Notes under the pieces: generated by a model | Told to the model about the DNA's origin: nothing | Databases searched by the model: none | The model's input: the letters and a program-made list of their open reading frames with translations, nothing else | Shown: positions 8,217 through 60,056 of the stretch, one piece after another | How positions within the stretch are numbered: the first letter of the stretch is position 1 | Layout of the letters: each line of letters starts with the position of its first letter | Source of the DNA: Escherichia coli | GTDB taxonomy: Bacteria > Pseudomonadota > Gammaproteobacteria > Enterobacterales > Enterobacteriaceae | Length of the DNA stretch: 64,000 bases | Strand: one strand, 5' to 3' | Assembly: GCF_041248615.1 (NCBI RefSeq) | Contig: NZ_CP158426.1 | Made by a program: the position numbers and the translations under genes

Positions 8217-8810
8217 ATGGAAAAATACCTGCATCTGTTAAGTCGGGGAGATAAAATTGGCCTGACATTGATTCGTCTGAGTATTGCGATTGTTTTTATG
8301 TGGATTGGGTTATTAAAGTTTGTCCCTTACGAGGCAGACAGCATTACACCATTCGTCGCAAACAGTCCACTAATGTCGTTCTTTTATGAACACCCGGAAG
8401 ACTATAAACAGTATCTGACTCACGAAGGCGAATACAAACCAGAAGCAAGGGCATGGCAATCGGCCAATAATACCTATGGTTTTTCCAACGGTCTTGGCGT
8501 CGTGGAGGTGATTATTGCTCTGCTGGTTTTGGCTAATCCTGTCAATCGCTGGTTAGGTTTATTGGGAGGGCTGATGGCATTTACCACACCGTTGGTAACA
8601 CTCTCATTTTTAATCACCACCCCGGAGGCATGGGTACCCGCATTGGGTGACGCTCATCATGGTTTCCCTTATTTATCCGGTGCTGGTCGCCTGGTATTGA
8701 AAGATACTCTGATGCTGGCAGGTGCTGTCATGATAATGGCAGATTCGGCGCGGGAAATTCTTAAACAACGCAGTAATGAATCCAGTTCAACGTTAAAAAC
8801 TGAATATTGA
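8217..8810 (+). CDS. rclC: Inner-membrane protein (DUF417-type) of the rcl operon
   Basis: ORF 8208..8810 trimmed to MEKYLHLL (197 aa); AGGA 9 nt upstream; multiple hydrophobic helices. Confidence 0.85.
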   Translation: MEKYLHLLSRGDKIGLTLIRLSIAIVFMWIGLLKFVPYEADSITPFVANSPLMSFFYEHPEDYKQYLTHEGEYKPEARAWQSANNTYGFSNGLGVVEVIIALLVLANPVNRWLGLLGGLMAFTTPLVTLSFLITTPEAWVPALGDAHHGFPYLSGAGRLVLKDTLMLAGAVMIMADSAREILKQRSNESSSTLKTEY

Positions 8811-8843
8811 TAATCCGAACACTGTCTGTTGTTCACTTTTTCA

Positions 8844-8881
8844 GGCGTCAGGCCCCCTTTCTGATGATGAAGCCTGACGCC
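8844..8881. terminator. Hairpin (ggcgtcaggc ... gcctgacgcc) between convergent rclC and the aldo-keto reductase; candidate bidirectional terminator
   Basis: 10-bp perfect inverted repeat read from the sequence, in a convergent intergenic gap. Confidence 0.5.
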
Positions 8882-8969
8882 ATATTACCGGAGATATGAC
8901 AGAGTGAAGATCAATATCACTCCCCTGTTAAAAGATTCTTGTCGTCTCAGGTAAAATACATGATTAATA

Positions 8970-9854
8970 TCAATCATGTATTTTTACAGCAAGACAACCA
9001 CGAACAAATTCAGGATTAAAATGTTTTACCGACTCCCCAACATAACCCAAATCAAGCGAACTAATTTGTGCCATTTCTTTCTCTGTCAGTGAGAAATCCC
9101 AGATAGCAAAATTTTCTTCGATACGCTGTTGATGTGTCGATTTCGGAATAACGACCACTCCCCGTTGAATATTCCAACGCAGAATGACTTGAGAAATCGA
9201 TTTTTGATGGGCATCTGCAATACTCTGAAGCAGATTATTTTCAAAGGGTTTATGTCGTCCACCACCTAACGGAGCCCATGCTTCAGGCTGCACGTTATAA
9301 TACTTCATGGTTGCCAGCGCCTCTGGTTGGGCAAAATAGGGATGCAACTCGACCTGGTTGACCATCGGTTTAACTCTTACCGTTTCACAAAAGTTCGCCA
9401 GAACATGAGGATAGAAATTGGAAACCCCAATTGCTTTTAATTTGCCCTCTTCATAGGCATCTTCGAGTGCACGCCACGCACTGAAATAATCGCGCATAGC
9501 CTGGTGCAATAAATAGAGGTCGAAGTATTCTAGTCCCGATTTTTTTAATGATGCTTCAATACCTGCTTTTGCCGTATCCTGATTCAACATATCCTGCACC
9601 CACAATTTAGACGTTATAAATAACTCATCTCGGGTACATAAACCTTCAGATATAGCTTCACGAACGGCTTCACCGACGGCATCTTCATTACCGTATACCG
9701 CTGCAGTGTCGATGAGTCGATAACCCGTGCGGATAGCATTCAACACTGACTGTTTGCACACGTCTTTATCGGTAACCTGAAAAACACCAAATCCCATCAT
9801 CGGCATTTTCAGATTGTTACTTAATACGGAAAATTCCACTGTCAGTCCCTCCAT
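8970..9854 (-). CDS. Aldo-keto reductase (2,5-diketo-D-gluconate reductase-like)
   Basis: 294-aa ORF with an AKR fold signature (LIDTAAVYGNE, IGVSNF); paralogous to the ORF at 17221..18072; the real start may be the GTG 15 nt downstream, which follows a GGAGG. Confidence 0.8.
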   Translation of the reverse strand: MEGLTVEFSVLSNNLKMPMMGFGVFQVTDKDVCKQSVLNAIRTGYRLIDTAAVYGNEDAVGEAVREAISEGLCTRDELFITSKLWVQDMLNQDTAKAGIEASLKKSGLEYFDLYLLHQAMRDYFSAWRALEDAYEEGKLKAIGVSNFYPHVLANFCETVRVKPMVNQVELHPYFAQPEALATMKYYNVQPEAWAPLGGGRHKPFENNLLQSIADAHQKSISQVILRWNIQRGVVVIPKSTHQQRIEENFAIWDFSLTEKEMAQISSLDLGYVGESVKHFNPEFVRGCLAVKIHD

Positions 9855-10462
9855 TAGGTATGAACAATGAGTCTACGTTAAAACGTAACCTCAAATTAGT
9901 ATGTGGATTTTGATATCACTTATGCAAAAAATTCATTAATAATGTAGGACTGAAACCTCTCTATTTTTGGGGCAATGAAGCAGACGCTATCAGTGCTTTT
10001 GCCTTGGGACTTGCTGTTTTTGATACACTTAAGGCCCAGGACATAACGAAAATGTGCGATATTACAAAGAATTAACGGAGAATGTGATGATCAGGCAGAA
10101 GATTCTACAGCAGCTCCTGGAGTGGATTGAGTGCAATCTTGAGCACCCTATTTCAATCGAAGATATCGCACAGAAATCTGGCTACAGCAGACGCAACATC
10201 CAGCTTCTGTTCCGAAATTTCATGCATGTGCCTTTGGGAGAATACATTCGCAAACGAAGGCTTTGTCGTGCCGCCATTCTTGTCCGACTCACCGCGAAAT
10301 CTATGCTTGATATTGCACTCTCTTTACATTTTGACTCACAGCAGTCATTCAGCCGCGAATTTAAAAAGTTATTCGGCTGCTCTCCCCGTGAATACCGCCA
10401 CCGTGATTATTGGGATCTCGCAAATATCTTCCCTTCTTTTTTAATACGTCAACAGCAAAAGA

Positions 10463-10467
10463 CGGAG
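10463..10467. repeat. 5-bp target-site duplication (CGGAG), left copy
   Basis: Identical 5-mer immediately flanks both ends of IS2. Confidence 0.7.
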
Positions 10468-10478
10468 TGGATTTGCCC

Positions 10479-11384
10479 CTATATTTCCAGACACCTGTTA
10501 TCACTTAACCCATTACTGGCCTGCTGCCGCAGATATTCCCGTGGCGAGCGATAACCCAGTGCACTATGCGGATGCCATTCGTTATAATGCTCGAACGCCT
10601 CTGCAAGGTTCTTTGCTGCCGTTAACCCGTCTGGTTTAGGCATGATACTGATGTAGTCACGCTTTATCGTTTTCACGAAGCTCTCTGCTATGCCGTTACT
10701 CTCCGGACTCCGCACCGCCGTGTTCTTCGGTTCAAGCCCCAATATCCGGGCAAACTGCCGTGTTTCATTAGCCCGGTAGCATGAACCATTATCCGTCAGC
10801 CACTCTACTGGAGACGCCGGAAGCTCGTTGCCGAAGCGGCGTTCCACCGCTCCCAGCATGACGTCCTGTACTGTTTCACTGTCGAAGCCGCCCGTAGTGA
10901 CTGCCCAGTGCAGTGCCTCACGGTCACAGCAGTCCAGCGCGAACGTGACTCGCAGTTTTTCTCCGTTATCACAGCGGAACTCGAACCCGTCAGAGCACCA
11001 TCGTTGATTGCTTTCTTTCACGGCCACTTTGCCAGTATGTGCCCGTTTCGATGGCGGTACAGCGGTTTTTCGCTCAAGCAACAGCGCATTCTGGCGCATG
11101 ATCCGGTAAACACGTTTGGCATTGATCGCAGGCGTACCATCAAGTTCGGCCTGTCTGCGAAGCAGCGCCCATACCCGACGATAACCATACGTGGGCAGCT
11201 CTCCGATAACATGGTGTATACGGAGAAGCACATCCGTATCATCTGAGTGACGGCTGCGGCGACCATCTTTCCAGTCATCGGTTCGTCTGAGAATTACGTG
11301 CAACTGCGCACGCGACACCCGGAGACAACGGCTGACTAAGCTTACTCCCCATCCCCGGGCAATAAGGGCGCGTGCGCTATCCAC
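10479..11384 (-). CDS. insD: IS2 OrfB (InsD), DDE transposase catalytic component
   Basis: 301-aa ORF starting [15 protein letters not shown]...; overlaps insC as expected for programmed -1 frameshifting in this family. Confidence 0.9.
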
Positions 11385-11707
11385 TTTTTTGCACGCCCGT
11401 ATTCAACGGCTTCTTTAAGGAGTTCATTTTCCATCGTTTTTTTGCCGAGCAGGCGCTGGAGTTCTTTAATCTGCTTCATGGCAGCAGCAAGTTCAGAGGC
11501 AGGAACGACCTGCTCTCCTGCGGCCACAGCAGTAAGACTTCCCTCCTGGTATTGCTTGCGCCAGAGAAATAACTGGCTGGCTGCCACACCGTGTTGCCGG
11601 GCAACAAGGGAGACCTTCATTCCCGGTTCAAAACTCTGCTGAACAATAGCGATCTTTTCCTGTGTAGTACGCCGTCTGCGTTTCTCCGGTCCTAAGACAT
11701 CAATCAT
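11342..11707 (-). CDS. insC: IS2 OrfA (InsC), helix-turn-helix transposase component
   Basis: ORF 11342..11752 trimmed to [13 protein letters not shown] (121 aa). Confidence 0.9.
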
Positions 11708-11798
11708 CTGCTCTCCAATGACTAGTCTAAAAACTAGTATTAAGACTATCACTTATTTAAGTGATATTGGTTGTCTGGAGATTCATGGGGCCAGTCTA

Positions 11799-11803
11799 CG
11801 GAG
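11799..11803. repeat. 5-bp target-site duplication (CGGAG), right copy
   Basis: Matches the left copy at 10463..10467. Confidence 0.7.
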
Positions 11804-12404
11804 TGTAGATTAGTCAACTTTCCTGAGACACCTATTTTTGGCAATTCATTTAAATATGATATTGAAGTATCGAATAAATCACCGGATGAAGAAGTCAAAC
11901 TGCGACGTCATCATTTAGCCAGATGTATGAAGAATTTTAAGACGGATATCTATTTCGTCTCCACATTCGAACCGTCAACAAAATCGGTCGATTTGCTCAC
12001 AGTTGAAACTTTTGCCGGTACGGTATGCAAACAAACCGATTCAGAGATGTCGAAAGAGTGGACAATTAACCGAGGACTGTATGCCTCTTTCCGCTATGAA
12101 GGTGAGTGGGAGCACTACCCTGAATGGGCGCGAAACCTCTATCTGATGGAATTACCTGCCAGGGGGTTAGCCAGAGTGAACGGCAGTGATATTGAGCGAT
12201 TTTATTACAATGAAAACTTCGTCGAAATTGATAGCAATAACATTGTTTGCGAAATTTTTATCCCCGTTCGCCCGGTTTAGCCTGTAAATCCATCACATAA
12301 GATTTACCCTACCCTGCCACCGTCTAATCGGTACCAGGGTAGGTATTCAGTAAATAATGGCACTGCGCATGTCAACGCCATTATTATTTATTACATCGTC
12401 GTTT

Positions 12405-15400
12405 TTATTTCTCCTCAGCACCTTCAGTATCTGCAGGAACGGCGTTAATTGTCACAGTCACTGGTTTCATTTCATACCCTCCATATGTCAAAGAGTTGAA
12501 TGTGAATGTGTATGTACCTGGCTTGTTGGTACTAAATGTACGCGTGATTTTCCCGCTCGCGAAATGGTCATTTTTCGACGGCAGGAACTGATAATCCGCC
12601 TCTGTCACCCCTTCCGGAGCCTCAATGTCGACCCACATGGTTCCTCCTACGGGGTTGACACCCGACATCAGAGTAACCGTCAGTGTTGCAGTAGTCTTCC
12701 CGTCCGCCACCAGAGAATCTACACGCTCTGGAGATGCAGCGAGCTCCGCGTTTTTATCATCCGCGACGAATTTAGATTCGGCAGTTTTCGTCGATTCCTG
12801 ACCGTCGGCCTGTTCCACTTTCGCCGTGAGTGTATATGTCGCTGCGACACTGGTCGTGGCGGTGAAAATAGCCTGTCCTTGCTCATTCGTTGTCGCCGTC
12901 CCATCGGGATCCAGAGCTAAATTTGCCGGGCTAGCAGTCAGCGTCACTTCGCTATCTTTCACCAAATTCTTATTGGCATCAGTCACCGTAACTTTATACG
13001 TTTGTTTGGCTTTGCCGTCCGCCAGTGCATAGTTGCCAATCACCTCAATACTGGAGACGGTTGCGGTAGCCTTATCGGCTACAAACGTTATAGTCTGCGT
13101 ATTCGAAGGCTGGCTATTCCCTGCCGATGCCGTGATCTCATACGTTCCGGCAGTCACTGAAACCACCTGCAACTCTGCTTTCCCCTCATCGTTGGCTTTC
13201 ACCCAGACATTATCGCCAGTAAGCGGCTTGACACCCCGGGGCAGATTAAAGGTCACCAGAGTTCCTGGAACAGGGTTACCGTTTTTATCCTCAACGGTCG
13301 CCGTCAGCGTAAAGGCATCTTTGCCGTTTGCCACTTTTTGAACGGCGGTGTCTACCTGCAGGTTTGCCTGACCGGTGCTGGCATCCGCGTTGAATTTCAC
13401 CGTGACCGTCTTCTGAGCACCATTCACCGAAGCGGAAATATAGTGTTCTCCCGCAACCGTTGACATAAGCTCAATGTCCACTTTACCTGCCGCATTGGTT
13501 GTTACTGTATTCCCCGTCTTGCTAGTCACACCCTGCGGTAAAGTCAGCGTAACTTCTTGTCCCTGCAACGGGTTACCATAGCTGTCCACGACGGTCAGGG
13601 TTACCTGGTTAGCAGACTGTCCATTTGCCAGTTGGTTATTCACCTTCACCGCCATATCACTGATCACTGCCCGGGAAGCGTCGCCTGCAACATTCAGCAC
13701 CAGTGGCTGAGCAACGGCATTTTGGCCGTTCACGCGTGGCATCACAGACAACTGACCTGCAGCCGATCCCAGCGTTAAGGTCGCCACGTAGACCCCATTA
13801 CCTTTCTCTGTCCAGTTTCCTGCTGAAGGACGCTCACTCCCCGTGCTGGCGGCACCGCTAAACACTGGTGCATCTGGCTTCAGCCCGGTGACCGGGTTCC
13901 CGTACGCATCCTTCACGGTGAAGGTGAGTTCCGTCGTCGTTTTGACGACCGGAGCCTTATTGTCCGCAACAAGCGTAGAGTTAGCTGATGACATCTCTCC
14001 AGCGATGACCGTCAACTGCGCGGCTTCGGTGGCTGCTGGCTGGCCATTGAAGAGAGGCATGACGCGAAGCTCGCCCGTCTTTCCGCCTGTGGTCAACGTA
14101 GCAACATAGGAACCGTCACCTTTTTCGGTCCAACTGGAAACGGTCGCCCCTTCAGAGGCGGTCCCCGTCAAACTTGCCGACAACGAAAGACCACTGATAG
14201 CGTTGCCATGTGCATCTTTTGCAATAAGCGTCACGGTTGTGCTTTCGCCGGCTTTTACGTGATCTTCTGCGACGGAGACTTTCGACTGGTTTGAAGATAA
14301 CGCATCAGCCACCACGGTTACTTTTGCCGCATTTGCTGCCGCATCCTGTCCATTTAGCTTCGGCATAACTTCTAATTCACCCGCCGTAGAGCCGAGAGTA
14401 ATTTGCGCAGTCCACGTCCCATCACCATTATTTGTCCAGCCCGATGCCGTAGAACCTACAGCAGCGGCACCCGCTAATGACGGCGCTTCCGGCGTGAGGC
14501 TGGTCACAGGGTTGTCATAGGCATCTTTTGCCGTCCAGATTGCCGTAACTGTACCGCCGACCACCGGTTTATCAGGATTCAGGGTGATGGACGAATGTGC
14601 TGCATCAAGCGGCCCGGCAACAAACTTCAGCGTTTGTTGTAATGTGCCCAGCTGATACTGCTCGCTGAAGGCACGCACAACAACGTTTCCGGCACGGGTC
14701 GAAGAAACCGTGGCGCTGTAAACCCCAGGTTTTATTTCCGAAATGGCACCAACGGTAACACCATTAGTGTCTTGCGGAACAAGTCGCAGGCGGCTGGCTT
14801 CTCCCGTCACCGGATTACCCTCGGAGTCCACCGCAGTCAGCGTCAGCGTGTAGGCTTGCTGACCATCAGCAACCACGTCACCTGACGGCTCGTTAGCACT
14901 CAGGGTGGAGTTTGCCACATCCATCATCGTGGCCCGCAGTTCTGCAGTGACGGTTTTGCTCATGCCATCAACGCTAACAGTAATCGTTGCCTCACCTGAC
15001 TGCGTTCCGGTAGTAAAGACAGACTGATACACCCCTGCTTCAGTTTCGGTGAACTCACCCAGTGTTGGCTTTGCCTGTGATTTAGTGGCCTTCAGAGAAC
15101 GAGTCACAATATTTCCAGCCGGTTTGAAAGTTAGTTCAGTCTTGATCTGATCTTTCATGCCCGTGACTGGCTGACCCTCGGCGTCGCGCAGAGACAGCAC
15201 CAGCGGCTTTTGCTCATTACCGTTAGCAAGCATTTGAATACGGCTCTGACCGTCAAGCGTTAACGCCGTACGATCGGCGCTCATACCAGCTCCGCTAATA
15301 ACCACTTCTGTCTGCACACGTTTCGAGGCATTGCCTTTGTTATCGTAGGCAATCGCTGAAACCGCATAATAATTGTCTTTGCCTGCCTGATAAGCCGGGA

Positions 15401-16655
15401 GCGTCACTTGCCACTGATTGCCCTGCCCCGTAATTTTTCCGCCTGCGGCCAGCAAAGACGGCGCTTCCCATTGCACATTTTTCAGACCGTGAGTTGCTTT
15501 GCTGACCACAAGCCCCAGGGAAACCGTCTGGCCGCCCTTGCCTTCAATACGCTCAGGCAGAGCAATACGGATCACTTCAGATTTGCGATACTCAAGAACG
15601 ATATTGTTATTACGCTCAACCAGGTCATAGCGGCTGCCTGCCAGCATTCGACGCTCGCGAATGCTGTCTGTATCGAGTTGTTTTTCCAGAGGTTCGCCAA
15701 TCCGATAATTAACTTCCAGGCCAAAGCGAGTGTCATTCTCACCACTCTTGCCCTGCTTATGCCCAGCACTCAGGGTCAGAAGAGGCACTGGCGTGTAATT
15801 CACTTCAGCGGTAATCGCATGTGGATCTTTCTGGCGTTTATCTTTACCAAACAGCCCGACTTCATCGCCATAATACTGTTCATACATCAGGCTTGCGCCA
15901 AGCTGCGGCCAGGCAGGTAAATAGCCCTCAGCACGAATATCCCAGCCATTCGCCGGGCGTTCCTGATAATCCTCAACATCCGGCGATTTTTTCCAGCCAG
16001 AAGCCCGGATATAACCATTGGCGCTCAGTTTCAAATAATCACGCCAGTATTCCGCACCAACACCAATGCGGGTATGACTACGGGATAAATCATGATCGAT
16101 AAAAGTATTCACCCCCGCCATCCAGTCATTTTCTGAAAAATGACGCCAGCCAAAACCAATATTTGACTGAGTACGATCGTCGGTACGATGTATTGCCCCC
16201 TGAGTGAATAACATATTTGTCGGTGTATCATAAATCGGATAAAGCATTTCCAGCGAAGAGTCCTTCAGCGAGAAATTTTTATCGACATTCAGTTTGACGC
16301 GCGCAGTACCATATTTCCCGAGCCACTCCTGAATTTCCTGGTTAGCTTTAGCGGTGGCCATTCCGGTAATAAAGTTACGTGTCGCATCGCTATCTGGCTG
16401 ACTGCTTAAAAATGTCCCGGCATTAGCGGCAAGCGACGCGACATTTTTCTCCACGTTATTATCAGCAGTTACCGTAGTATTTTCCATGCTCAACCGTGGC
16501 TGAACCGCATGCTGCGCACGTGCTGCCATTACTGGCGTAAAGGTGACAGCGAGTGGAAAAAGAACCTGAACAGAGATATTTGCCCACGCCACGCAGCGGG
16601 CCAGAACTGAATAACGAAATCGTGGTTGTTTATGACCTGTTTTATAACGTGACAT
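12405..16655 (-). CDS. eaeH: Intimin/invasin-family outer-membrane adhesin with a long array of Big domains; full length (1416 aa)
   Basis: Single uninterrupted 1416-aa ORF; N-terminal signal/beta-barrel region followed by repeated Ig-like segments. Confidence 0.9.
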   Translation of the reverse strand: MSRYKTGHKQPRFRYSVLARCVAWANISVQVLFPLAVTFTPVMAARAQHAVQPRLSMENTTVTADNNVEKNVASLAANAGTFLSSQPDSDATRNFITGMATAKANQEIQEWLGKYGTARVKLNVDKNFSLKDSSLEMLYPIYDTPTNMLFTQGAIHRTDDRTQSNIGFGWRHFSENDWMAGVNTFIDHDLSRSHTRIGVGAEYWRDYLKLSANGYIRASGWKKSPDVEDYQERPANGWDIRAEGYLPAWPQLGASLMYEQYYGDEVGLFGKDKRQKDPHAITAEVNYTPVPLLTLSAGHKQGKSGENDTRFGLEVNYRIGEPLEKQLDTDSIRERRMLAGSRYDLVERNNNIVLEYRKSEVIRIALPERIEGKGGQTVSLGLVVSKATHGLKNVQWEAPSLLAAGGKITGQGNQWQVTLPAYQAGKDNYYAVSAIAYDNKGNASKRVQTEVVISGAGMSADRTALTLDGQSRIQMLANGNEQKPLVLSLRDAEGQPVTGMKDQIKTELTFKPAGNIVTRSLKATKSQAKPTLGEFTETEAGVYQSVFTTGTQSGEATITVSVDGMSKTVTAELRATMMDVANSTLSANEPSGDVVADGQQAYTLTLTAVDSEGNPVTGEASRLRLVPQDTNGVTVGAISEIKPGVYSATVSSTRAGNVVVRAFSEQYQLGTLQQTLKFVAGPLDAAHSSITLNPDKPVVGGTVTAIWTAKDAYDNPVTSLTPEAPSLAGAAAVGSTASGWTNNGDGTWTAQITLGSTAGELEVMPKLNGQDAAANAAKVTVVADALSSNQSKVSVAEDHVKAGESTTVTLIAKDAHGNAISGLSLSASLTGTASEGATVSSWTEKGDGSYVATLTTGGKTGELRVMPLFNGQPAATEAAQLTVIAGEMSSANSTLVADNKAPVVKTTTELTFTVKDAYGNPVTGLKPDAPVFSGAASTGSERPSAGNWTEKGNGVYVATLTLGSAAGQLSVMPRVNGQNAVAQPLVLNVAGDASRAVISDMAVKVNNQLANGQSANQVTLTVVDSYGNPLQGQEVTLTLPQGVTSKTGNTVTTNAAGKVDIELMSTVAGEHYISASVNGAQKTVTVKFNADASTGQANLQVDTAVQKVANGKDAFTLTATVEDKNGNPVPGTLVTFNLPRGVKPLTGDNVWVKANDEGKAELQVVSVTAGTYEITASAGNSQPSNTQTITFVADKATATVSSIEVIGNYALADGKAKQTYKVTVTDANKNLVKDSEVTLTASPANLALDPDGTATTNEQGQAIFTATTSVAATYTLTAKVEQADGQESTKTAESKFVADDKNAELAASPERVDSLVADGKTTATLTVTLMSGVNPVGGTMWVDIEAPEGVTEADYQFLPSKNDHFASGKITRTFSTNKPGTYTFTFNSLTYGGYEMKPVTVTINAVPADTEGAEEK

Positions 16656-17205
16656 TGAGATAATTTCCTGATGAACGAATTAACGAACATAGGCAGACAC
16701 AAATAATGGCGTCTGCTTGTCAGAAAAACCGGGGATTTCCCGGTTTCCTTTTCCGCAGAAAAGGAAATACCTTTATGTAAGAAAGTACACCGCCACCTAA
16801 TATATCCAGTGTCTGTAGCCACTCATCAGGTGGTTGGGCGCGGGATTATATTTTTATTTATGGGTAAAAATTTAGCTTTTTGTGCAAGTTATTAAATAGA
16901 TACTTAAGTTATATTTCTTACTCTGCGGGCAGTGAATAATTCATTATTAAGAGTGAATAATAATGACCCGTCTTTAATTAACTGCTATTGGGAGTACGTC
17001 GAAGTGAGTATATACGCCAGGATAAACCAATATATTTTTTATGGACATTCATTTATATTCATCGGACTGTAAATTCCGGGGATATCGAACTTGCACTACT
17101 CATCGCAACACTCAAACAGATTTATGAATTTTGTTCATAACCCCTGACAAATCCTGCCGTCTAATCGAGCTTTTCCCTTTACGTTATGCTTCTCATGAAC
17201 GATAA

Positions 17206-20129
<2,924 letters not shown>

Positions 20130-24865: not shown

Positions 24866-24915
24866 TTCAAAATTCGACGAATTAACGATATTTGTCTGAT
24901 TAATAATCAGACCGG

Positions 24916-24955
24916 ATTAATGTTGGTGTATTTATTACACCAGCATTAATTTTCC
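24916..24955 (+). terminator. Rho-independent terminator candidate after ykgMO (attaatgttggtgta ... tacaccagcattaat, then T-run)
   Basis: Inverted repeat followed by TTTT, read from the sequence. Confidence 0.55.
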
Positions 24956-25879
24956 TGAGGATGTATCTTCCTGTTCATTTAAGGTCAACTGCCTGACGTT
25001 TCTCTCCGAATATTCCATTATATTAATGTTGACTTGTTGACCAGGTGCGCCCTGTATGCTGGCATCAACTCTCTTTTAGACTGAACACGCCACTCAGTTT
25101 CCTCCCTTTGCGACGCAGCCTGCATTTACACTCAAACGGTTAAGATGATAAATGTGGTAAATCTGTTGGTACTGACATAAAAACGTTTACGCCACAGGAA
25201 CGGCCTGATCCACCGGTAACCCCATCGCCGACGTTCGAGTGCCAGTTAGAGTAACGCGCACAGATGACTGAATGCAGTGCCCTGGCAAAGAGGCCATCGT
25301 TCCTGTGACAACTGGCAGTCTTCGTTTAACTTCACTTAATTTGGCTCTTAGGGGGCTTACCGGACAGATGACGTACTTACACCTGTTTAATTTTTCATCA
25401 CTTATTGGGATGAACACCCATAACCATTTTGTGCGGCATGTTAATCCATTAAAACACCTTACTGATTGGCAAATCATCTTTAATTATGACTCATGATAGT
25501 TTTATATTCTATTTCTTATCATTTAAACTTGTTTTTTTACTAGTCCATTACACAACACATTAAGACTATTCCTAACACCTCAGGGCAAAGTTCCTGGCTA
25601 ATATAAAATGCAAGTAAGAATTGAACGTTATATTGCCAATAACCTTATGAAACTGAATGTCTTTTTCTTCTTATCAAAAAAGCAATATTTTCATTTTTTG
25701 TAAATATTGACTTAACCATGGAATTCCTTTTCTGTTCACATATTGACACTCATCAGGAAAAAAACATAAATTTAAACCTAATCGAAATAATTAAAACTTA
25801 ATCTCGTTTAACCTATATTGATATGTGCTACGTATCTTATTTACTTCCGATTTACTAAAGAAACTGAATGTACCTGTAA

Positions 25880-50604: not shown

Positions 50605-52062
50605 GTGTCTGAACTGTCTCAATTATCTCCACAGCCGCTGTGGGATATTTTTGCCAAAATCTGTTCTATTCCTCACCCGTCCTATCATGAAGAGCAACTC
50701 GCTGAATACATTGTTGGTTGGGCAAAAGAGAAAGGTTTCCATGTCGAACGCGATCAGGTAGGTAATATCCTGATTCGTAAACCTGCTACCGCAGGTATGG
50801 AAAATCGTAAACCGGTCGTCTTGCAGGCCCACCTCGATATGGTGCCACAGAAAAATAACGACACCGTGCATGACTTCACTAAAGATCCTATCCAGCCTTA
50901 TATTGATGGCGAATGGGTTAAAGCGCGCGGCACCACGCTGGGTGCGGATAACGGCATTGGTATGGCGTCTGCGCTGGCGGTTCTGGCTGACGAAAACGTG
51001 GTTCACGGCCCGCTGGAAGTGCTGCTGACCATGACCGAAGAAGCCGGTATGGATGGTGCTTTTGGCTTACAGAGCAACTGGTTGCAGGCTGATATTCTGA
51101 TTAACACCGACTCCGAAGAGGAAGGTGAAATCTACATGGGTTGCGCGGGGGGTATCGACTTCACCTCCAACCTGCATTTAGATCGTGAAGCGGTTCCAGC
51201 TGGTTTTGAAACCTTCAAGTTAACCTTAAAAGGCCTGAAAGGCGGTCACTCCGGCGGTGAAATCCACGTTGGCCTGGGTAATGCCAACAAACTGCTGGTG
51301 CGCTTCCTGGCGGGTCATGCAGAAGAGCTGGACCTGCGCCTTATCGATTTCAACGGTGGCACACTGCGTAACGCCATCCCGCGTGAAGCCTTTGCGACCA
51401 TTGCTGTCGCAGCTGATAAAGTCGACGCCCTGAAATCTCTGGTGAATACCTATCAGGAGATCCTGAAAAACGAGCTGGCAGAGAAAGAGAAAAATCTGGC
51501 ATTGCTGCTGGACTCTGTTGCGAACGATAAAGCTGCCCTGATTGCGAAATCTCGCGATACCTTTATTCGTCTGCTGAACGCCACCCCGAACGGTGTGATC
51601 CGCAATTCCGATGTGGCAAAAGGTGTGGTGGAAACCTCCCTGAACGTCGGTGTGGTGACCATGACTGACAATAACGTAGAAATTCACTGCCTGATCCGTT
51701 CTCTGATCGACAGCGGTAAAGACTACGTGGTGAGCATGCTGGATTCGCTGGGTAAACTGGCTGGCGCGAAAACCGAAGCGAAAGGCGCATATCCTGGCTG
51801 GCAGCCGGACGCTAATTCTCCGGTGATGCATCTGGTACGTGAAACTTATCAGCGTCTGTTCAACAAGACGCCGAACATCCAGATTATCCACGCGGGCCTG
51901 GAATGTGGTCTGTTCAAAAAACCGTATCCGGAAATGGACATGGTTTCTATCGGGCCAACAATCACCGGTCCACACTCTCCGGATGAGCAAGTTCACATCG
52001 AAAGCGTAGGTCATTACTGGACACTGCTGACTGAGCTGCTGAAAGAAATTCCGGCGAAGTAA
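50605..52062 (+). CDS. pepD: Cytosolic non-specific dipeptidase (aminoacyl-histidine dipeptidase)
   Basis: 485-aa ORF of the M20 peptidase family. Confidence 0.95.
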   Translation: MSELSQLSPQPLWDIFAKICSIPHPSYHEEQLAEYIVGWAKEKGFHVERDQVGNILIRKPATAGMENRKPVVLQAHLDMVPQKNNDTVHDFTKDPIQPYIDGEWVKARGTTLGADNGIGMASALAVLADENVVHGPLEVLLTMTEEAGMDGAFGLQSNWLQADILINTDSEEEGEIYMGCAGGIDFTSNLHLDREAVPAGFETFKLTLKGLKGGHSGGEIHVGLGNANKLLVRFLAGHAEELDLRLIDFNGGTLRNAIPREAFATIAVAADKVDALKSLVNTYQEILKNELAEKEKNLALLLDSVANDKAALIAKSRDTFIRLLNATPNGVIRNSDVAKGVVETSLNVGVVTMTDNNVEIHCLIRSLIDSGKDYVVSMLDSLGKLAGAKTEAKGAYPGWQPDANSPVMHLVRETYQRLFNKTPNIQIIHAGLECGLFKKPYPEMDMVSIGPTITGPHSPDEQVHIESVGHYWTLLTELLKEIPAK

Positions 52063-52118
52063 TTATTTGATTTGCTGCCGGATGGCGTTTAATCGCCTTC
52101 CGGCAGTTTCATCCTTCA

Positions 52119-52673
52119 TTATCCTTCGATAAAAGCCATCCCTGTAAATGTCCGTCTCGGGTTGCCACGTTCAATCTGGTGATGGAACATTCGCCGCCGC
52201 GATTTCAGCACCGCGCTATTTTCCTGTTGCTGTTGTTCCAGCGTCCAGGCAATCAGCAATCGCGCCAGCCGCTTGTTAGCATGCCCAGAAACAAGTTTTT
52301 GCGCCCATGATGAGGCCGATACGGACTCGGACAAATCCACTGAATAGTGCCGCACCAACTTTCGCTTAATGCCCATGCGTTATCGCCATCCAGAGAAATC
52401 AGCGCCGAACGCAGCGTGTCAGAGTAGCGGCCCGTTTCTGTTTCCAGCACCGTTACCGCGACGTCTTGCCGGGTAAAAACGACCAACAGAGAATAACGCT
52501 GCGCCAATCGGGTAGCCGCGTCCGGGGTGTAAATCTGGCATCCCTACTACGCGCTGCATGTTGGGTAAATTTGCCGTGGTGTGTAATTGTTGAATCGCTA
52601 AACTCTCGATCCACAGGTCATCAGATGCGATGGTAAATACCGCATCGGATAAGGGACGAATATATTTGCCCAT
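52119..52673 (-). pseudogene. prfH: Decayed RtcB-like ligase / release-factor-H (prfH) module: an RtcB N-terminal stub followed by frame-disrupted prfH pieces
   Basis: ORF 52419..52673 begins like RtcB (MGKYIRPLSDAVF...[10 protein letters not shown]) then breaks off; ORFs 52253..52507 and 52119..52376 carry release-factor-like segments in two different frames. Confidence 0.6.
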
Positions 52674-54125: not shown

Positions 54126-55181
54126 TCATAATCCCAGCACCAGTTGTCTTTCCATTTGAGGGTCAAGCAACGTCACATGCAGCCCCACCAGTCGCACACC
54201 GCGCCCGCCGCGGCGTTCATCCCAGGTTTTACGCGCGGTGGCGATTAGATCAGCTTTATTCAGCCGCGGCCAGACGTGCTCCTGAGTAGTTTGCTGAAAA
54301 TCGTCGAACTTTAATTTCACCCCCTGGCGAGCAATCAGTAAATCAGGTTTTACTTTTGCCAGACGACGTTCAAGTTCCGGATACAGCCGCTCGATAATCG
54401 CTTCACATTCAGACCAGTGATGAATATCTTCCGCCATCGTGCGTTCCACGCCGACAGATTTTCGCAACCGTTCGCTGTTAACGTCGCGCTCGTCAATCCC
54501 CTGACTACGCTCCCACAAAATGCGGCCAAATTTGCCAAAACGTTTGAGCAGAGTCACCAGATCACACTTTTGCACATCACCGCAGGTCCGCAGCCCCATC
54601 GCTTCCAGTTTTGCCGCCGAGACTTTGCCGACGCCGGGGATTTTTGCCAGCGGTAAGGTTTGTAAAAATGTCGGAACTTCTGCCGGCGTAATCACAAACT
54701 GGCCGTTGGGTTTATTCATGTCGGAGGCGATTTTGGCGAGAAACTTTACTGGTGCCACGCCCGCAGACGCCGTCAGTTGCAGCTCGTTGAAGATTGTCTG
54801 GCGGATTTCCTGGGCGATGAGGGTCGCAGAACCGTGGCAATGGACGCTATCAGTGACATCGAGATAGGCTTCATCCAGTGACAACGGTTCAATACGCGAG
54901 GTGTAGCGCGAGAAGATTTCACGGATATGATTTGAGGCTTCTTTGTAGGCGTCAAAGCGCCCCGGAAGCAAGGTGAGATGTGGGCATAATTTGAGCGCCA
55001 TCCCTGTCGGCATAGCGCTACGTACGCCAAATTTACGCGCGGGATAATTGGCGGTGCTGATCACCCCCCGACGTTCGCGGCTGCCGCCAATAGCAATAGG
55101 GATATCGCGCAGGGCGGGATTGTCGCGCATCTCCACTGCGGCGAAAAAGCAGTCCATATCCACATGAATGATTTTACGCAT
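54126..55181 (-). CDS. dinB: DNA polymerase IV (Y-family translesion polymerase)
   Basis: 351-aa ORF starting [17 protein letters not shown]. Confidence 0.95.
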
Positions 55182-55197
55182 TGCTCACCTCTCAACA

Positions 55198-55213
55198 CTG
55201 GTAAAGTATACAG
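55198..55213. promoter_or_regulatory. LexA box (CTG-N10-CAG: ctggtaaagtatacag) in the dinB promoter
   Basis: Palindromic SOS-box-like sequence about 17-32 bp upstream of the dinB start codon. Confidence 0.75.
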
Positions 55214-55251
55214 TGATTTCAGGGTTTGAGAAATGCGTAAAGATTCAGCAT

Positions 55252-56175
55252 CTAGCGCGTTCGCTGCGAAAGCACCTGCTGCTTATCCAGCTTTTGCACC
55301 AGCGGCTGCACCACTTTATCCCCATGCTGACCAAAGTATTGATACAGCGTATCGGACGCACTTTTGGTCAGCACCATAATCTCAATGCGTCGGTTGCCCG
55401 CGCTTTGCGGATTTTTGGCATCCAGCAGCATCTGGTCCGCCATTGCGCTTACCTGCATCACTTTATCTTCCGGCATTCCAGCCTCTTCCAGCACCCGACG
55501 GGCCGAAAGCGCGCGATCGCCCGAAAGGTTCCAGTTGTTGTAGATATTGTTTTTGTAGGCCATCGCATCGGTATGCCCGGTGATGATGATCTTATTGTCG
55601 AGCGAATCAAAAACCGGCGCTAACTCCACCAGCAAAGTTTTAAAGAACGGCATAATCTGCGCGCTGCCGCGTTCAAACATATTGCGGTTCTGGTCATCTT
55701 TAATCAGCACGCGCAGTCCCTGGGGAACAATCTCCATCTCCAGATTCGCTTCCATATGCGCATCACGGGCGATGGTGTTGATACTGGTTGCCAGCTCACC
55801 AAGCTCAGTAGCGGATTTCTTCTTCAGCAGCGCCGTTTTCTCATTGACGTCACGCGCTTTTTTCTCCGTCTCTTCCGGCACCGCCACGGTGGCAGGTTTT
55901 GGCGGATGAGACGGGCTGATTTTATTTAACGGCGACAACCCGCCGCCATTGAAAATCGACTGCCCGTGCAGCGCGGCGATAATGCTTTCACGCTCGGATT
56001 TACTGACGCTGTTGACAATCCACAGCGTCATAAACAGCGCCATCATTGCCAAAGTAAAGTCGGCGAACGCCACCTTCCACGCCCCGCCGTGGTGCCCGGC
56101 ATGATTCTTTTTGATCTGCCGCCGGACGATGGTGGTTTTTGCCCCACGCTCGCGGCGGTTGCCCGTCTTTCTCAT
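55252..56175 (-). CDS. lafU: Flag-2 lateral-flagellar stator protein, MotB-like
   Basis: ORF 55252..56208 trimmed to MRKTGNRRERG...; the start overlaps the lafT stop; MotB-like N-terminal helix and C-terminal OmpA-like domain. Confidence 0.8.
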   Translation of the reverse strand: MRKTGNRRERGAKTTIVRRQIKKNHAGHHGGAWKVAFADFTLAMMALFMTLWIVNSVSKSERESIIAALHGQSIFNGGGLSPLNKISPSHPPKPATVAVPEETEKKARDVNEKTALLKKKSATELGELATSINTIARDAHMEANLEMEIVPQGLRVLIKDDQNRNMFERGSAQIMPFFKTLLVELAPVFDSLDNKIIITGHTDAMAYKNNIYNNWNLSGDRALSARRVLEEAGMPEDKVMQVSAMADQMLLDAKNPQSAGNRRIEIMVLTKSASDTLYQYFGQHGDKVVQPLVQKLDKQQVLSQRTR

Positions 56176-56177
56176 GC

Positions 56178-57041
56178 TTATTCTTGCTCCAGCATCGCAT
56201 TCACCCACGCGTCGAGGTTGGCGAAGGTCGGTTTGGACGCCAGATGCAGCAGCTTACGCCCGGCGTCCACTGCCAGCAGCGTCGGTTTGCCGCCTGCCTG
56301 CGCCACCAGCACGGTGCGCACGCATTCCAGCAAAGAATGTTCTGCCCGCGCCTGTTGTTCCATGGCGTTGGCGAGCGGGTCCATCAGGCAGTAGCAGATA
56401 AAGACGCCTAAAAACGTCCCCACCAGCGCTGCCGCCACTTTCAGGCCAATCAGTGCGATAGAGCCGTCAATCGACTGCATGGTGATGATGATGCCCAACA
56501 CCGCCGCACAAATGCCAAACCCCGGCATCGCTTCGGCGGTACGTTGCAGCGAGCGCGACGGCGTTAGCAGCGACTCTTCCGCGGTGTCCAGTTCCTGATC
56601 GAGAATGCCTTCCAGTTCATGGGCGTCGATTTTACCCATCGCCATCAGGCGAAAGTTATCGGCAATAAAGGTCACCAGCCGCTTCTGGGTTAACACCAGC
56701 GGGTATTTCTGGAAAATGGTGCTCTCTTCCGGTTGCTCGATATGCTGATCCAGCATGCGCAGGCCGCCGTTTTGCACCATTTCGAGCAACTCATACAGGC
56801 ACATTAATAGCTGACGCTGAAACTCCGGCCCGAGCTGTTTTTTACTGATCACGCCTTTAATTTGATGAGCAATCTCTTTCAGCACATGTTTCGGATTACC
56901 AATAATCATCGCCCCGAAGCCCGCGCCTAAAATAATGATCATTTCCGCCGGTTGCCAGATAGCCACTAATTGCCCGCCCGCTTCAAAATAACCGCCAAAT
57001 ACGCAGCCGAGCACCACCAGTAAACCTAATATTTTTTGCAT
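56178..57041 (-). CDS. lafT: Flag-2 stator protein, MotA-like
   Basis: 287-aa four-helix membrane ORF. Confidence 0.8.
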   Translation of the reverse strand: MQKILGLLVVLGCVFGGYFEAGGQLVAIWQPAEMIIILGAGFGAMIIGNPKHVLKEIAHQIKGVISKKQLGPEFQRQLLMCLYELLEMVQNGGLRMLDQHIEQPEESTIFQKYPLVLTQKRLVTFIADNFRLMAMGKIDAHELEGILDQELDTAEESLLTPSRSLQRTAEAMPGFGICAAVLGIIITMQSIDGSIALIGLKVAAALVGTFLGVFICYCLMDPLANAMEQQARAEHSLLECVRTVLVAQAGGKPTLLAVDAGRKLLHLASKPTFANLDAWVNAMLEQE

Positions 57042-57053
57042 GATTTCTTCACT

Positions 57054-57773
57054 TTAATTCGGATAGACAAAATCACGAATTTTCTGCGCGATCTGTTTAT
57101 TCAGTTGACAAATACGGGCTTCGGTTAGCCCTAATACCAGCGCAATCTCTTTGAGATTCATCTCATGCTGGTAATACATGGAGAGGATCAGTTGCTCTTT
57201 TTCGCTTAATAGTGAAAGTGCGTGTTGCAGCATTTGCTGGGTGACAAACTGATCTTCCAGTTCCCTGCCAGCAAGTGGAATGCCTTGCCCTTCGCCGTTC
57301 AGCAGTTCGTCAAGGCTGGCGAGCGTTTCCGCCCCTTCCAGTTGCTGATATTCGAGATAATCTTCATGCGAGATCCCTTCCACGGCCAGTTCTGACCACT
57401 CAGGCTCGTGCCCCAGTTTTTTACGCGTTTCGCGAATCAGGTCTTTCATCTGATGATATTTCTGTCGCAGCTGGCGCGGTCGCCAGTCGAGAGCGCGCAG
57501 CTCATCCAGGATCGCGCCGCGAATACGGTGCACGGCATAGCCCGCAAAACCTTCGTCCGGCAGTCCGTAGCGGCGAATGGCATTAAGCAGCCCCATTAAC
57601 GCCGTTTGTTCCATATCCTGACGATCAATAATGCAATTACACTGCGGGGCAAGTTGCCGCACAACTTTACGCACCAGTGGTAAATAGGCCTGCAAGTAGT
57701 GGCTCTCCTGCTGCGGGGTTAATACCGGCGCGGCAGCAAATTCTTCTGACTCGAATAATACGTCCTGTAGCAT
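57054..57773 (-). CDS. lafS: Flag-2 flagellar sigma factor (FliA / sigma-28 family)
   Basis: 239-aa ORF with sigma-70-family regions 2 and 4. Confidence 0.8.
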   Translation of the reverse strand: MLQDVLFESEEFAAAPVLTPQQESHYLQAYLPLVRKVVRQLAPQCNCIIDRQDMEQTALMGLLNAIRRYGLPDEGFAGYAVHRIRGAILDELRALDWRPRQLRQKYHQMKDLIRETRKKLGHEPEWSELAVEGISHEDYLEYQQLEGAETLASLDELLNGEGQGIPLAGRELEDQFVTQQMLQHALSLLSEKEQLILSMYYQHEMNLKEIALVLGLTEARICQLNKQIAQKIRDFVYPN

Positions 57774-57792
57774 GTTTATATCCGCCTGGTGA

Positions 57793-58260
57793 TTACTGGA
57801 AGACCACTTTTTTCACCAGCAAATCCTTATATGGTGCGCTCATTTTGCGACGTTGAAGGTCTTTCTTTAACGCATCCGAAATCAGTTTGCGGATGGCAGA
57901 TATTTTCATGCCGCGCAAATCTTCAAATTTCATTTCCGTCAGGCATTCAACCGCAATACTTTGATACAGCGGCTCCTGATGTTTTATTTTTTCCGCTTCT
58001 TTGTCACTGGCGACCACCATCACTAATTCCGCCGACAAATAATGGTCCGCGCCGTTGTTGTCATGCAGCGTGACAATGGTTTCCGGCAACGTCACAAATA
58101 CGCTTTTGCTTTCATCCAGGGTTTCCACCGTTTCCGTCTGCGCGGCGGCAGTCGGTTTTCCTTTTCCGGCATAATGATGCCAGACACCCCATCCAGCTCC
58201 GGCCCCCACCACCAACGCCAGAACGGCGCTGACCACGCCCGCCACCACGATTTTCTTCAT
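57793..58260 (-). CDS. lafF: Flag-2 FliL-like basal-body-associated protein
   Basis: 155-aa ORF with a single N-terminal transmembrane helix. Confidence 0.7.
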   Translation of the reverse strand: MKKIVVAGVVSAVLALVVGAGAGWGVWHHYAGKGKPTAAAQTETVETLDESKSVFVTLPETIVTLHDNNGADHYLSAELVMVVASDKEAEKIKHQEPLYQSIAVECLTEMKFEDLRGMKISAIRKLISDALKKDLQRRKMSAPYKDLLVKKVVFQ

Positions 58261-58267
58261 ATTGCCT

Positions 58268-59329
58268 TTACACTTTGATCAAAACGGATTCGTTCTGTTG
58301 AAATTGAGGCGCATCATCAAGCTGTAAGGCGGCACTCACCTCTTCCTGCTGATGGCCCGACTGTTGTTGTTGCTGCGACTGCCCTTCGGAGGAAACCTGT
58401 ACGTTCACCTCCATAAAATTTTGCGCCGTCAGATGCTGGCGGAGATCGTCGCTAAACTGTTGTAACGCGCGGCAAACTTCACTTTGGTTCGCGCCGATGT
58501 GCACCATCAGTTTGCCGTTATCGAGTTGTACGACGATCTCGAGCTTGCCAAGCGACGGTGGATCGAGACGGATGGTGGAGATCTGCTGTTGTTTGTTGAG
58601 CTGAAAGTGGATCTGATCTTTCAACAGCGTCGTCAGTTTTTCGCCCAGTTCGTCCATTGAAAGCGTGGCTGGTTTGGCGACAATCTCCTGATGCTGGCTG
58701 ACCAGCTCCGGCGTCTTAACCTGCAACACCGCACGCGCAATAACCGGTTCGCTGTCCGGCACTTTTTCCGTTTTACGCTCGACCTGTGGGCGCGCGGTCA
58801 CACGGGTTAGTTCAGGTTTCGGGCGAGCGGGCTGTGTTGAGACGCGCGGCTGCGTCGGCGCAATGGCATGTAAATCTTCACTGGCGTAAGTCGCCAGCCT
58901 GGCCTGCTGTTCGGGTTTCGCCTGCGGCAACTGACCGATCAGCTCCTGCAACTGCGGCGGCAACGGCGTGAGTTCCTGCTGTTGCGTCGGGCGTTGCGGC
59001 GCTTTTTGCACCACCGCTTTCGTCACTTGCTGGATAACCGGCGATGTTGCGACGTTTCGCGGCTGCGGCGTGTCCTGATGCGGCGCGGTAGGTTGCGGAA
59101 GTAACAGCGCCATTAGCGCCTGCATCGCCACCGGATCGTTCTCCTGCGGGCGCGTCGCCTGTTGCTGACTGGTTTTAGCGCTATGAACGCGCTCCGCCAC
59201 CGCCGCGACCGCCATTTTCGGCAGGGTAAACGCGGGCGCGTTTTCACCGCTCACCGGCGGTAAAATACCCGTTTTCAGCGACGCCGTTTCCACAAGCGTT
59301 CCGAGCGTGGCAAGCAATGCCGGATTCAT
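58268..59329 (-). CDS. lafE: Flag-2 hook-length control protein (FliK-like)
   Basis: 353-aa Pro/Gln-rich ORF. Confidence 0.7.
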   Translation of the reverse strand: MNPALLATLGTLVETASLKTGILPPVSGENAPAFTLPKMAVAAVAERVHSAKTSQQQATRPQENDPVAMQALMALLLPQPTAPHQDTPQPRNVATSPVIQQVTKAVVQKAPQRPTQQQELTPLPPQLQELIGQLPQAKPEQQARLATYASEDLHAIAPTQPRVSTQPARPKPELTRVTARPQVERKTEKVPDSEPVIARAVLQVKTPELVSQHQEIVAKPATLSMDELGEKLTTLLKDQIHFQLNKQQQISTIRLDPPSLGKLEIVVQLDNGKLMVHIGANQSEVCRALQQFSDDLRQHLTAQNFMEVNVQVSSEGQSQQQQQSGHQQEEVSAALQLDDAPQFQQNESVLIKV

Positions 59330-59637
59330 GACTTCTCCGAAAGTAAATTAACAATTGAGTAGGCCAGTACGCCTTCCTGATGCCGCTGATGCTGTTCCAT
59401 ACGCGCCTTCAACACTTCTGCACGCTGCTCGCGCCGTTTAATCAGGGCATTAAACGCGCCGTACAGCTGCGCCTTCACCGCACACAACTGCGCCGCGTCG
59501 GTTTCCGCCGCCACGTAATCGTGAAACTGGCGCATCAACTGCTGATGCAGTGCCGGAAGCCGTCGCCAGCGTTGCTTGTCGAGGGCTTCGTTCATCGCCT
59601 CAACCAGTGCGAAAAGTTGCCTGCGTTGTTTTTCCAT
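59326..59637 (-). CDS. lafD: Flag-2 FliT-like export chaperone
   Basis: 103-aa helical ORF located between the FliS-like and FliK-like genes. Confidence 0.6.
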   Translation of the reverse strand: MEKQRRQLFALVEAMNEALDKQRWRRLPALHQQLMRQFHDYVAAETDAAQLCAVKAQLYGAFNALIKRREQRAEVLKARMEQHQRHQEGVLAYSIVNLLSEKS

Positions 59638-59641
59638 CGTC

Positions 59642-60034: not shown

Positions 60035-60056
60035 CTTTAGGGATATTCCTTCTGAG

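Follow-up and report, generated by a model that had tools for sequence, protein, structure and literature searches.

The open reading frame at positions 12405-16655 on the minus strand of the analysed window, a stretch of 64,000 nucleotides of Escherichia coli DNA, is almost certainly an ordinary chromosomal orthologue of fdeC (eaeH), encoding a type Ve inverse autotransporter adhesin, and the nearby IS2 a separate, recent insertion into ykgA. The intactness, domain architecture, orthology and synteny of fdeC were established, as were the position and orientation of IS2 and its empty site in a near-identical strain. No contradiction to the reading as an ordinary fdeC orthologue was found in the sequence.

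Identity and distribution of the gene

According to the list of open reading frames, the coding sequence is a single uninterrupted frame of 1416 codons plus stop with an ATG start. The translation contains one terminal and zero internal stops. By our own arithmetic, the chance of a frame of this length remaining open is about (61/64)^1416, roughly 1e-30. The whole window is 100% identical to the chromosome of E. coli NRZ14408 (NZ_LT599825.1), for which RefSeq annotates fdeC (WP_001589766.1) at equal coordinates. In the alignment with FdeC of the ExPEC strain IHE3034 (ECOK1_0290; Nesta et al. 2012, PMC3324786; PDB 4E9L), 1343 of 1416 residues (95%) were identical at equal length and with 0 gaps. 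A hidden frameshift or truncation was ruled out by this full-length alignment. The first-pass annotation had described a single intact 1416-aa frame of the intimin/invasin family and proposed comparison with a characterised FdeC; the list of frames, the translation and the alignment agree with this description.

For FdeC, a length of 1416 aa, more than 91% amino-acid identity within the group and a pseudogene in K-12 were reported (Nesta et al. 2012, PMC3324786). The protein of the window aligns with this group over its full length at high identity, and the locus is conserved. The order rclRABC, aldo/keto reductase, ykgA, fdeC, two aldo/keto reductases and two LysR genes is common to NRZ14408, isolate 362, 21AH004 and IHE3034; thus, rcl and ykgA genes lie on one side of fdeC, and aldo/keto reductase and LysR genes on the other. 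Length, the architecture of a barrel followed by Ig-like modules and chromosomal neighbourhood are shared with IHE3034. The two loci differ by 73 substitutions in the protein and by the ykgA gene, which is intact and free of IS2 in IHE3034.

Of 5426 complete E. coli genomes, 4585 (~85%) carried at least 80% of fdeC. Former studies reported the gene in 99% of ExPEC (Nesta et al. 2012, PMC3324786) and in 67% of complete genomes and 83% of ECOR strains (Goh 2019). Intact fdeC is therefore the default state of E. coli and no special mark of this strain. The truncated eaeH of K-12 is the exception. The first-pass annotation had described the gene as fragmented in K-12, which is correct in that it is disrupted there, but it is truncated rather than broken into several fragments. 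In MG1655 the corresponding locus holds this gene as a pseudogene of 888 bp (b0297) covering aa 1-292, of which 284 of 292 residues are identical to the present protein. It abuts IS3A, which has replaced the rest of the gene together with the fdeC-side part of ykgA. In contrast, fdeC is complete in the window, and the insertion element is IS2 and interrupts ykgA only. The exact allele is rare, with only two complete E. coli genomes matching at 99% or above and a next best match of 96.7%. Presence, length, domains, K-12 truncation and regulation of the gene were already published between 2012 and 2019. FdeC has already been described as an adhesin and vaccine candidate, and the finding carries little weight as a discovery.

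Domain architecture and family membership

The domain annotation confirmed the long array of Big domains that had been expected for this protein, located behind an outer-membrane barrel. The N-terminal region (aa 1-47; 16515-16655, minus strand) consists of a basic stretch followed by a hydrophobic segment ending in PVMAARAQ, and is presumed from the translation to be a long signal peptide. Only 2 of its residues differ from IHE3034 FdeC. The beta-barrel translocator domain (aa 76-350; 15606-16430, minus strand) matched Pfam PF11924 (IAT_beta) with an E value of 5.4e-110 over profile positions 3-279 of 279. It also matched the solved barrels of invasin (4e1t, E 5e-85) and intimin (4e1s, E 1e-72).

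The passenger (aa 358-1416; 12408-15584, minus strand) was resolved by a segment-wise Pfam scan into ten Ig-like modules in tandem, each about 100 aa long. With the whole protein as query, nine Invasin_D3 and five Big_1 stretches were found. In the segment-wise scan modules 2-9, eight of the ten segments, each scored above the cut-off of Invasin_D3 and/or Big_1. Module 1 matched the intimin domain D00 (6tqd). Module 10 (aa 1298-1416) matched Ig-type models only and stayed just under the threshold (Invasin_D3, 29.8 vs 33 bits). Furthermore, aa 595-1008 correspond to the FdeC crystal structure 4e9l with hardly any difference, and the match to 1cwv was confined to aa 1006-1139. The N-terminal IAT_beta barrel and the C-terminal tandem Big_1/Invasin_D3 passenger are those of an inverse autotransporter.

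Intimin (EaeA) and Yersinia invasin (InvA) have a homologous 12-stranded barrel and a Big_1/Invasin_D3 Ig-like passenger as well. Neither a LysM domain nor a C-type lectin tip (Intimin_C) was detected in the Pfam scan of the whole product and its segments, in contrast to these two proteins with their C-terminal lectin domains (Intimin_C and invasin D5). Intimin proper was ruled out by the lack of LysM and Intimin_C and by the NCBIfam model NF033627 (intimin_all), which gave 387 bits, far below its cut-off of 1400 bits, and matched aa 62-467 only. Invasin proper was ruled out as well, the last module being of Ig type and without the lectin-like, integrin-binding domain D5. FdeC also differs from intimin by ten Ig modules instead of four (Heinz 2016, PMC4943183), and in the literature it binds collagens, not Tir or beta-1 integrins as intimin and invasin do (PMC3324786, PMC4943183).

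Proposed secretion, function and regulation

The route of secretion, the adhesion and the regulation outlined here are inferred from published work on orthologues. As in other family members, a long signal sequence at the N-terminus would carry FdeC across the inner membrane, and the barrel would insert into the outer membrane, aided by BAM and TAM. The ten-module C-terminal passenger would then thread out through the barrel and form a long stalk, which may bind host cells and collagens and promote biofilm. Binding of collagen I, III, V and VI by FdeC was described by Nesta et al. (2012, PMC3324786). Heinz (2016, PMC4943183) reported ten Big domains, TAM-assisted assembly and triggering of expression by host-cell contact, and showed for another FdeC allele that the passenger is exposed on the surface and that its assembly depends on BAM/TAM.

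Expression of fdeC probably starts from its own upstream region, an AT-rich divergent intergenic stretch of 565 bp (16656-17220) common to fdeC and the aldo/keto reductase gene starting at 17221, and taken to hold the native fdeC promoter. This region is reportedly silenced by H-NS and responsive to temperature and host-cell contact. For EHEC fdeC, control by H-NS and temperature is said to have been found by Easton in 2014. The GC content is 0.41 at 16500-16999, and the motif AGGAAA is located 9 nt upstream of the ATG. Promoter-like matches in the upstream region were not above shuffle expectation.

On the other side of the gene, the convergent spacer between the stop codons of fdeC and ykgA (12281-12404) was predicted to fold into three strong hairpins with -47.4 kcal/mol (z = -6.2); 0 of 200 shuffled sequences were as stable. 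It includes an inverted repeat at 12308-12343. No canonical T-tract terminator was found in a pattern scan 3' of fdeC, and no structured RNA or riboswitch was matched with Rfam at 8800-17400 (E <= 0.1).

Variation of the allele

Differences to IHE3034 FdeC are unevenly distributed. The barrel region (aa 100-400) is 100% identical, and the windowed identity drops to 75-90% at aa ~1070-1260 (12876-13448, minus strand; Ig modules 7-9) compared to 97-100% elsewhere. Most of the substitutions are thus found in surface-exposed modules. From this pattern, the translocator seems to be under purifying selection and the exposed parts to be diversifying rather than decaying. The binding properties of this allele could differ somewhat in modules 7-9.

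With regard to this variation, it was considered whether the frame is intact yet non-functional, a silent relic without any expression or with substitutions that disable it. In the strains studied, fdeC expression in vitro is low and needs host contact or relief from H-NS, and the number of residues differing from IHE3034 could be read in the same way. But the open frame is fully kept without gaps, the barrel is unchanged and the differences are mostly restricted to the exposed modules. In addition, FdeC of isolate 362, a second clinical isolate of independent origin, is identical to that of the window. A silent relic is accordingly highly improbable, and the reading as an ordinary fdeC orthologue is preferred.

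Insertion of IS2 into ykgA

The element at 10468-11798 (minus strand) is the only IS2 copy in the window. It resembles K-12 IS2A of the IS3 family in its length of 1331 bp, its two overlapping ORFs, its near-identical termini and a 5-bp duplication. Since 1271 of 1331 positions are identical without gaps (95.5%), leaving 60 substitutions, it is an IS2 isoform. The IRR end is located at 10468 and the IRL end at 11798. The transposase ORFs (11342-11752 and 10479-11384) encode 136 and 301 aa and are joined by a programmed frameshift according to the RefSeq label, which assigns them to the IS3 family. The terminal inverted repeats are imperfect, with arms of 33 nt and 76% complementarity. The target-site duplication CGGAG lies at 10463-10467 (left copy) and 11799-11803 (right copy).

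By this insertion ykgA is cut into a 5' fragment with the AraC-type helix-turn-helix part (10087-10467, plus strand; RefSeq pseudogene, C-terminus missing) and a 3' fragment with the GyrI-like domain between IS2 and the 3' end of fdeC (11799-12280, plus strand; RefSeq pseudogene, N-terminus missing). Excision of IS2 together with one copy of the duplication restored a single open ykgA frame. The gene is intact with 285 aa in isolate 362 and IHE3034. In isolate 362 (NZ_OW967178.1), the site is empty with a single CGGAG. Only 1 mismatch was found between this isolate and the window in 12,820 bp of flanks. IS2 appears to be a recent simple insertion into the convergent ykgA, beyond the 3' end of fdeC, which inactivates ykgA and leaves fdeC, its promoter and the 3' hairpins untouched.

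Possible effects of IS2 on fdeC

The first-pass annotation had placed fdeC adjacent to an IS2 that could influence its expression. The presence of IS2 was confirmed by its length, the match to IS2A and the CGGAG repeat. Adjacency is to be qualified, as the distance from IS2 is 606 bp to the stop codon of fdeC and 4857 bp to its start codon, and the first of these intervals contains the 3' part of ykgA and the structured spacer. The suggested influence found no anatomical support, because the element is inserted within ykgA on the 3' side of fdeC, its IRR faces away from fdeC and no plus-strand promoter-like site was found. Transcription of the transposase runs parallel to that of fdeC and leads away from the gene. 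In IS3-family elements, IS2 included, the outward -35 sits in IRR (PMC9330008), which is here the end far from fdeC. In the promoter scan of 11600-12700 no plus-strand promoter-like site was detected, and the total of matches was not above shuffle expectation. An outward IS2 promoter towards fdeC was rejected on these results. Leftward from IRR one promoter-like match (10452-10423) was found; it falls entirely within the original ykgA sequence and does not exceed what chance would give, and the IRR end was likewise rejected as a driver of the leftward neighbours.

An effect in cis might still be imagined by rightward transcription from IRL (11798) through the ykgA 3' fragment, giving antisense RNA to fdeC, or by changed topology or spreading of H-NS. 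Proximity alone could be put forward for this, and effects of IS elements on nearby genes are known (PMC9330008). However, the fdeC promoter is even farther from IS2 than the start codon, the IRL promoter reads inward, which is leftward in the window and away from fdeC, and three stable hairpins separate ykgA from fdeC. Moreover, the fdeC promoter region equals that of isolate 362, which is free of the element, base for base. An effect in cis is thus extremely improbable. The earlier view is to be corrected, as an element that lies downstream of fdeC and disrupts ykgA is in no position to drive the adhesin gene.

An effect on fdeC transcription in trans, by loss of YkgA, is conceivable. Were fdeC under the control of this AraC/GyrI-like regulator, the insertion would shift the expression of the adhesin, and the repeated insertions into ykgA would be a sign of selection for that shift. 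In accordance with this idea, the neighbourhood of ykgA and fdeC is conserved and the two genes occur together (ykgA in 4631 and fdeC in 4585 of 5426 genomes), as many as three putative regulators were noted in the fdeC cluster (Nesta et al. 2012, PMC3324786), and independent IS2 insertions into ykgA, within 5 bp of each other, are present in two or more backgrounds. On the other hand, the literature search on ykgA gave no paper that links YkgA to fdeC; one paper groups ykgA with superoxide-stress response genes, and in another YkgA is only named as one of the AraC-family regulators. Instead of diverging, as a regulator and its target usually do, ykgA and fdeC converge, and disruption of ykgA is rare, with at most ~76 extra split places among 5044 records. 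Target choice of IS2 is non-random, and a target-site preference alone would also give insertions of the same orientation a few bases apart without selection. Control of fdeC by YkgA is therefore very unlikely, and an ordinary fdeC orthologue next to a ykgA gene inactivated by a separate insertion remains the preferred reading.

As a small addition to the known picture, ykgA looks like a recurrent target of IS2, since independent copies within 5 bp of each other were found in unrelated backgrounds, at least two and probably three in number. That ykgA is an orientation-specific target whose loss might be selected via changed expression of fdeC or the flanking reductases is most doubtful. The one pointer to such selection is the clustering of the insertions. 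NRZ14408 and isolate 362 are a natural near-isogenic pair, with IS2 in ykgA and the empty site, respectively, and 1 SNP in 12.8 kb, and could be used to test for a link between YkgA and fdeC.

Intact FdeC orthologue

The window contains an intact orthologue of the adhesin FdeC (EaeH) with barrel and Ig array, in a conserved locus and with an AT-rich upstream region of its own (565 bp, GC 0.41). In the ORF list, fdeC is located on the minus strand at 12405-16655 (1416 aa, ATG start). No internal stops were found in the translated frame, and by our own arithmetic a frame this long would occur by chance with a probability of about 1e-30. The inverse-autotransporter barrel (IAT_beta) was assigned by Pfam to aa 76-350 (E 5e-110), along with nine Invasin_D3 and five Big_1 stretches in the protein. 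A Pfam scan by segment showed ten Ig-like modules, each roughly 100 aa long, with modules 2-9 individually above threshold, but neither a LysM domain nor a lectin tip. The ten modules agree with the "10 Big domains" published for FdeC (PMC4943183). All top NCBIfam matches were inverse-autotransporter N-terminal regions. The ORF is not an intimin, since the NCBIfam intimin model scored 387 bits at a cut-off of 1400. The single intact ORF with a long Ig array described by the first-pass annotation was thus confirmed by ORF list, stop-free translation and Pfam stretches; its assignment to eaeH/fdeC of the intimin/invasin family was correct, based on barrel, Ig-like modules and FdeC orthology.

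The protein was compared with FdeC of the ExPEC strain IHE3034, the protein characterised by Nesta et al. 2012 (PMC3324786). Both proteins are of equal length and share 1343 of 1416 residues (95%) without gaps; the gene order around fdeC matches as well. Identity in the barrel is 100% across aa 100-400, and the substitutions cluster at aa ~1070-1260. This gap-free conservation pattern argues against a silent or decayed gene, which is unlikely. The FdeC crystal fragment 4e9l is nearly identical to aa 595-1008, and the barrel matched the solved invasin and intimin barrels.

From 9500 to 18500, the window matches the chromosome of E. coli NRZ14408 (NZ_LT599825.1) at 100% identity; there, RefSeq names the ORF "fdeC: inverse autotransporter adhesin FdeC" (WP_001589766.1). 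That locus comprises rclR and rclABC, an aldo/keto reductase gene, the IS-split ykgA and fdeC, followed by two aldo/keto reductase genes, two LysR genes, a hydrolase and a flavin oxidoreductase; ykgR, ykgM, ykgO and then the ecp operon lie at the far end. Judging from the orthologue literature, fdeC would be under H-NS and temperature control, as reportedly described by Easton in 2014. After Sec export and TAM-assisted barrel insertion, the passenger would be displayed at the surface (PMC4943183). It may bind epithelial cells and collagens I, III, V and VI (PMC3324786), and FdeC would be expected to promote biofilm, with expression triggered by host-cell contact (PMC4943183).

Distribution in E. 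coli

The first-pass annotation described the gene as fragmented in K-12. This was right in substance, since eaeH of MG1655 (b0297) is an 888-bp pseudogene ending at IS3A, the counterpart of FdeC aa 1-292 (284/292 identical); ykgA is truncated by IS3A as well. Among 5426 complete E. coli genomes, 4585 contain at least 80% of fdeC; truncated forms were seen in K-12 derivatives and BL21. The K-12 truncation is the exception in E. coli. Published frequencies agree: fdeC was carried by 99% of ExPEC isolates in a study that explicitly mentions the K-12 pseudogene (PMC3324786), and among 126 complete genomes 67% had the complete gene, as did 83% of the ECOR strains (PMC6714894). Intactness as a notable feature was therefore not supported; the intact fdeC here is real, already known and ordinary.

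In MG1655 (313716-317567), an IS3A-associated deletion took most of eaeH. The aldo/keto reductase, LysR, hydrolase and oxidoreductase genes of the ykgR-eaeH interval are gone too, and ykgP and ykgQ are the remnants. The same gene block is missing in strain OkiPb01676, yet its fdeC is full-length.

IS2 insertion in ykgA

The window holds one IS2 copy (10468-11798). It is exactly 1331 bp long, gap-free and identical at 1271/1331 positions to the K-12 copy IS2A, with the expected ORFs of 136 and 301 aa on the minus strand. The element is flanked by 5-bp direct repeats CGGAG (10463-10467 and 11799-11803) and lies within ykgA (10087-12280, plus strand), which encodes a regulator with AraC-type HTH and GyrI-like domain and converges on fdeC. 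Removal of IS2 and one CGGAG in silico restored a single open ykgA frame. Isolate 362 (Madrid, NZ_OW967178.1) has an intact 285-aa ykgA with a single CGGAG and an identical FdeC protein. Since its flanks differ from the window at 1 of 12,820 bases, the insertion is recent; this comparison also indicates that fdeC and its promoter were unchanged by it.

An influence of the neighbouring IS2 on fdeC expression, as proposed in the first-pass annotation, was not supported, and such a cis effect is extremely improbable. IS2 lies past the fdeC 3' end, 606 bp from the stop codon; the start codon is 4857 bp away. Its end closest to fdeC is the left terminal repeat IRL (11798), whose promoter is directed leftward into the element and not towards fdeC. 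Fusion promoters of IS3-family elements, IS2 among them, take their outward -35 from the right repeat IRR (PMC9330008), which is situated at 10468 and faces away from fdeC. No plus-strand promoter-like site was detected between IS2 and fdeC by promoter scan. Furthermore, the convergent spacer between the fdeC and ykgA stops (12281-12404, 124 nt) forms three very stable hairpins (-47.4 kcal/mol, z = -6.2). No canonical T-tract terminator was found in this spacer, and no Rfam family matched across 8800-17400; the spacer may act as a terminator in both directions or as a REP-like insulator. Hence, given position, orientation, spacer and the IS2-free isolate 362, a cis effect has no anatomical basis. 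An effect of the loss of YkgA in trans is very unlikely, too. Although ykgA and fdeC are conserved, co-occurring neighbours (4631 and 4585 genomes, respectively), they are convergent, and no link between YkgA and fdeC was found in the literature.

IS2 and fdeC variation in other strains

In strain 21AH004, an IS2 isoform differing from that of the window at 26 of 1331 positions occupies the same ykgA site in the same orientation, with identical immediate flanks and the duplication CGGAG. In OkiPb01676, a canonical IS2 (99.8% identity to IS2A) sits in ykgA 5 bp further left; its orientation is the same, and its duplication is AAAAG. Further genomes contain IS2 at other ykgA positions. These repeated entries across strains suggest that 10458-10467 is a local IS2 insertion hot-spot; despite this, ykgA is contiguous in 4631 of the 5426 genomes.

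About 180 of the 213 differences between the window and 21AH004 fall inside 12750-17750. Within this interval lie the greater part of fdeC, its promoter and the beginning of the adjacent aldo/keto reductase gene; the 5.8 kb left of it contain only 6 differences. This clustering marks 12750-17750 as a recombination tract covering the adhesin gene. Such a tract is consistent with the rarity of the exact fdeC allele, found with at least 99% identity in 2 of 5426 genomes (next best 96.7%).

Other features of the window

A patch of gene remnants (39636-44106) adjoins a tRNA-Thr gene (44031-44106). It includes an MFS transporter with an internal stop (39636-40763), a partial second ykgR copy (43324-43392) and a LysR fragment (43673-43903). 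In IHE3034, the vat island occupies the locus beside this tRNA-Thr gene. Elsewhere, a frameshifted hypothetical gene (1288-1838), a frameshifted ykgL (24900-25125) and prfH/rtcB remnants (51999-52553) are annotated as pseudogenes. Part of the lateral-flagella (Flag-2) cluster, which is mostly deleted in K-12, is annotated as intact at 55132-64000, with lafU, motA, a FliA-type sigma factor, fliL, fliK, fliS, fliD and lafA.
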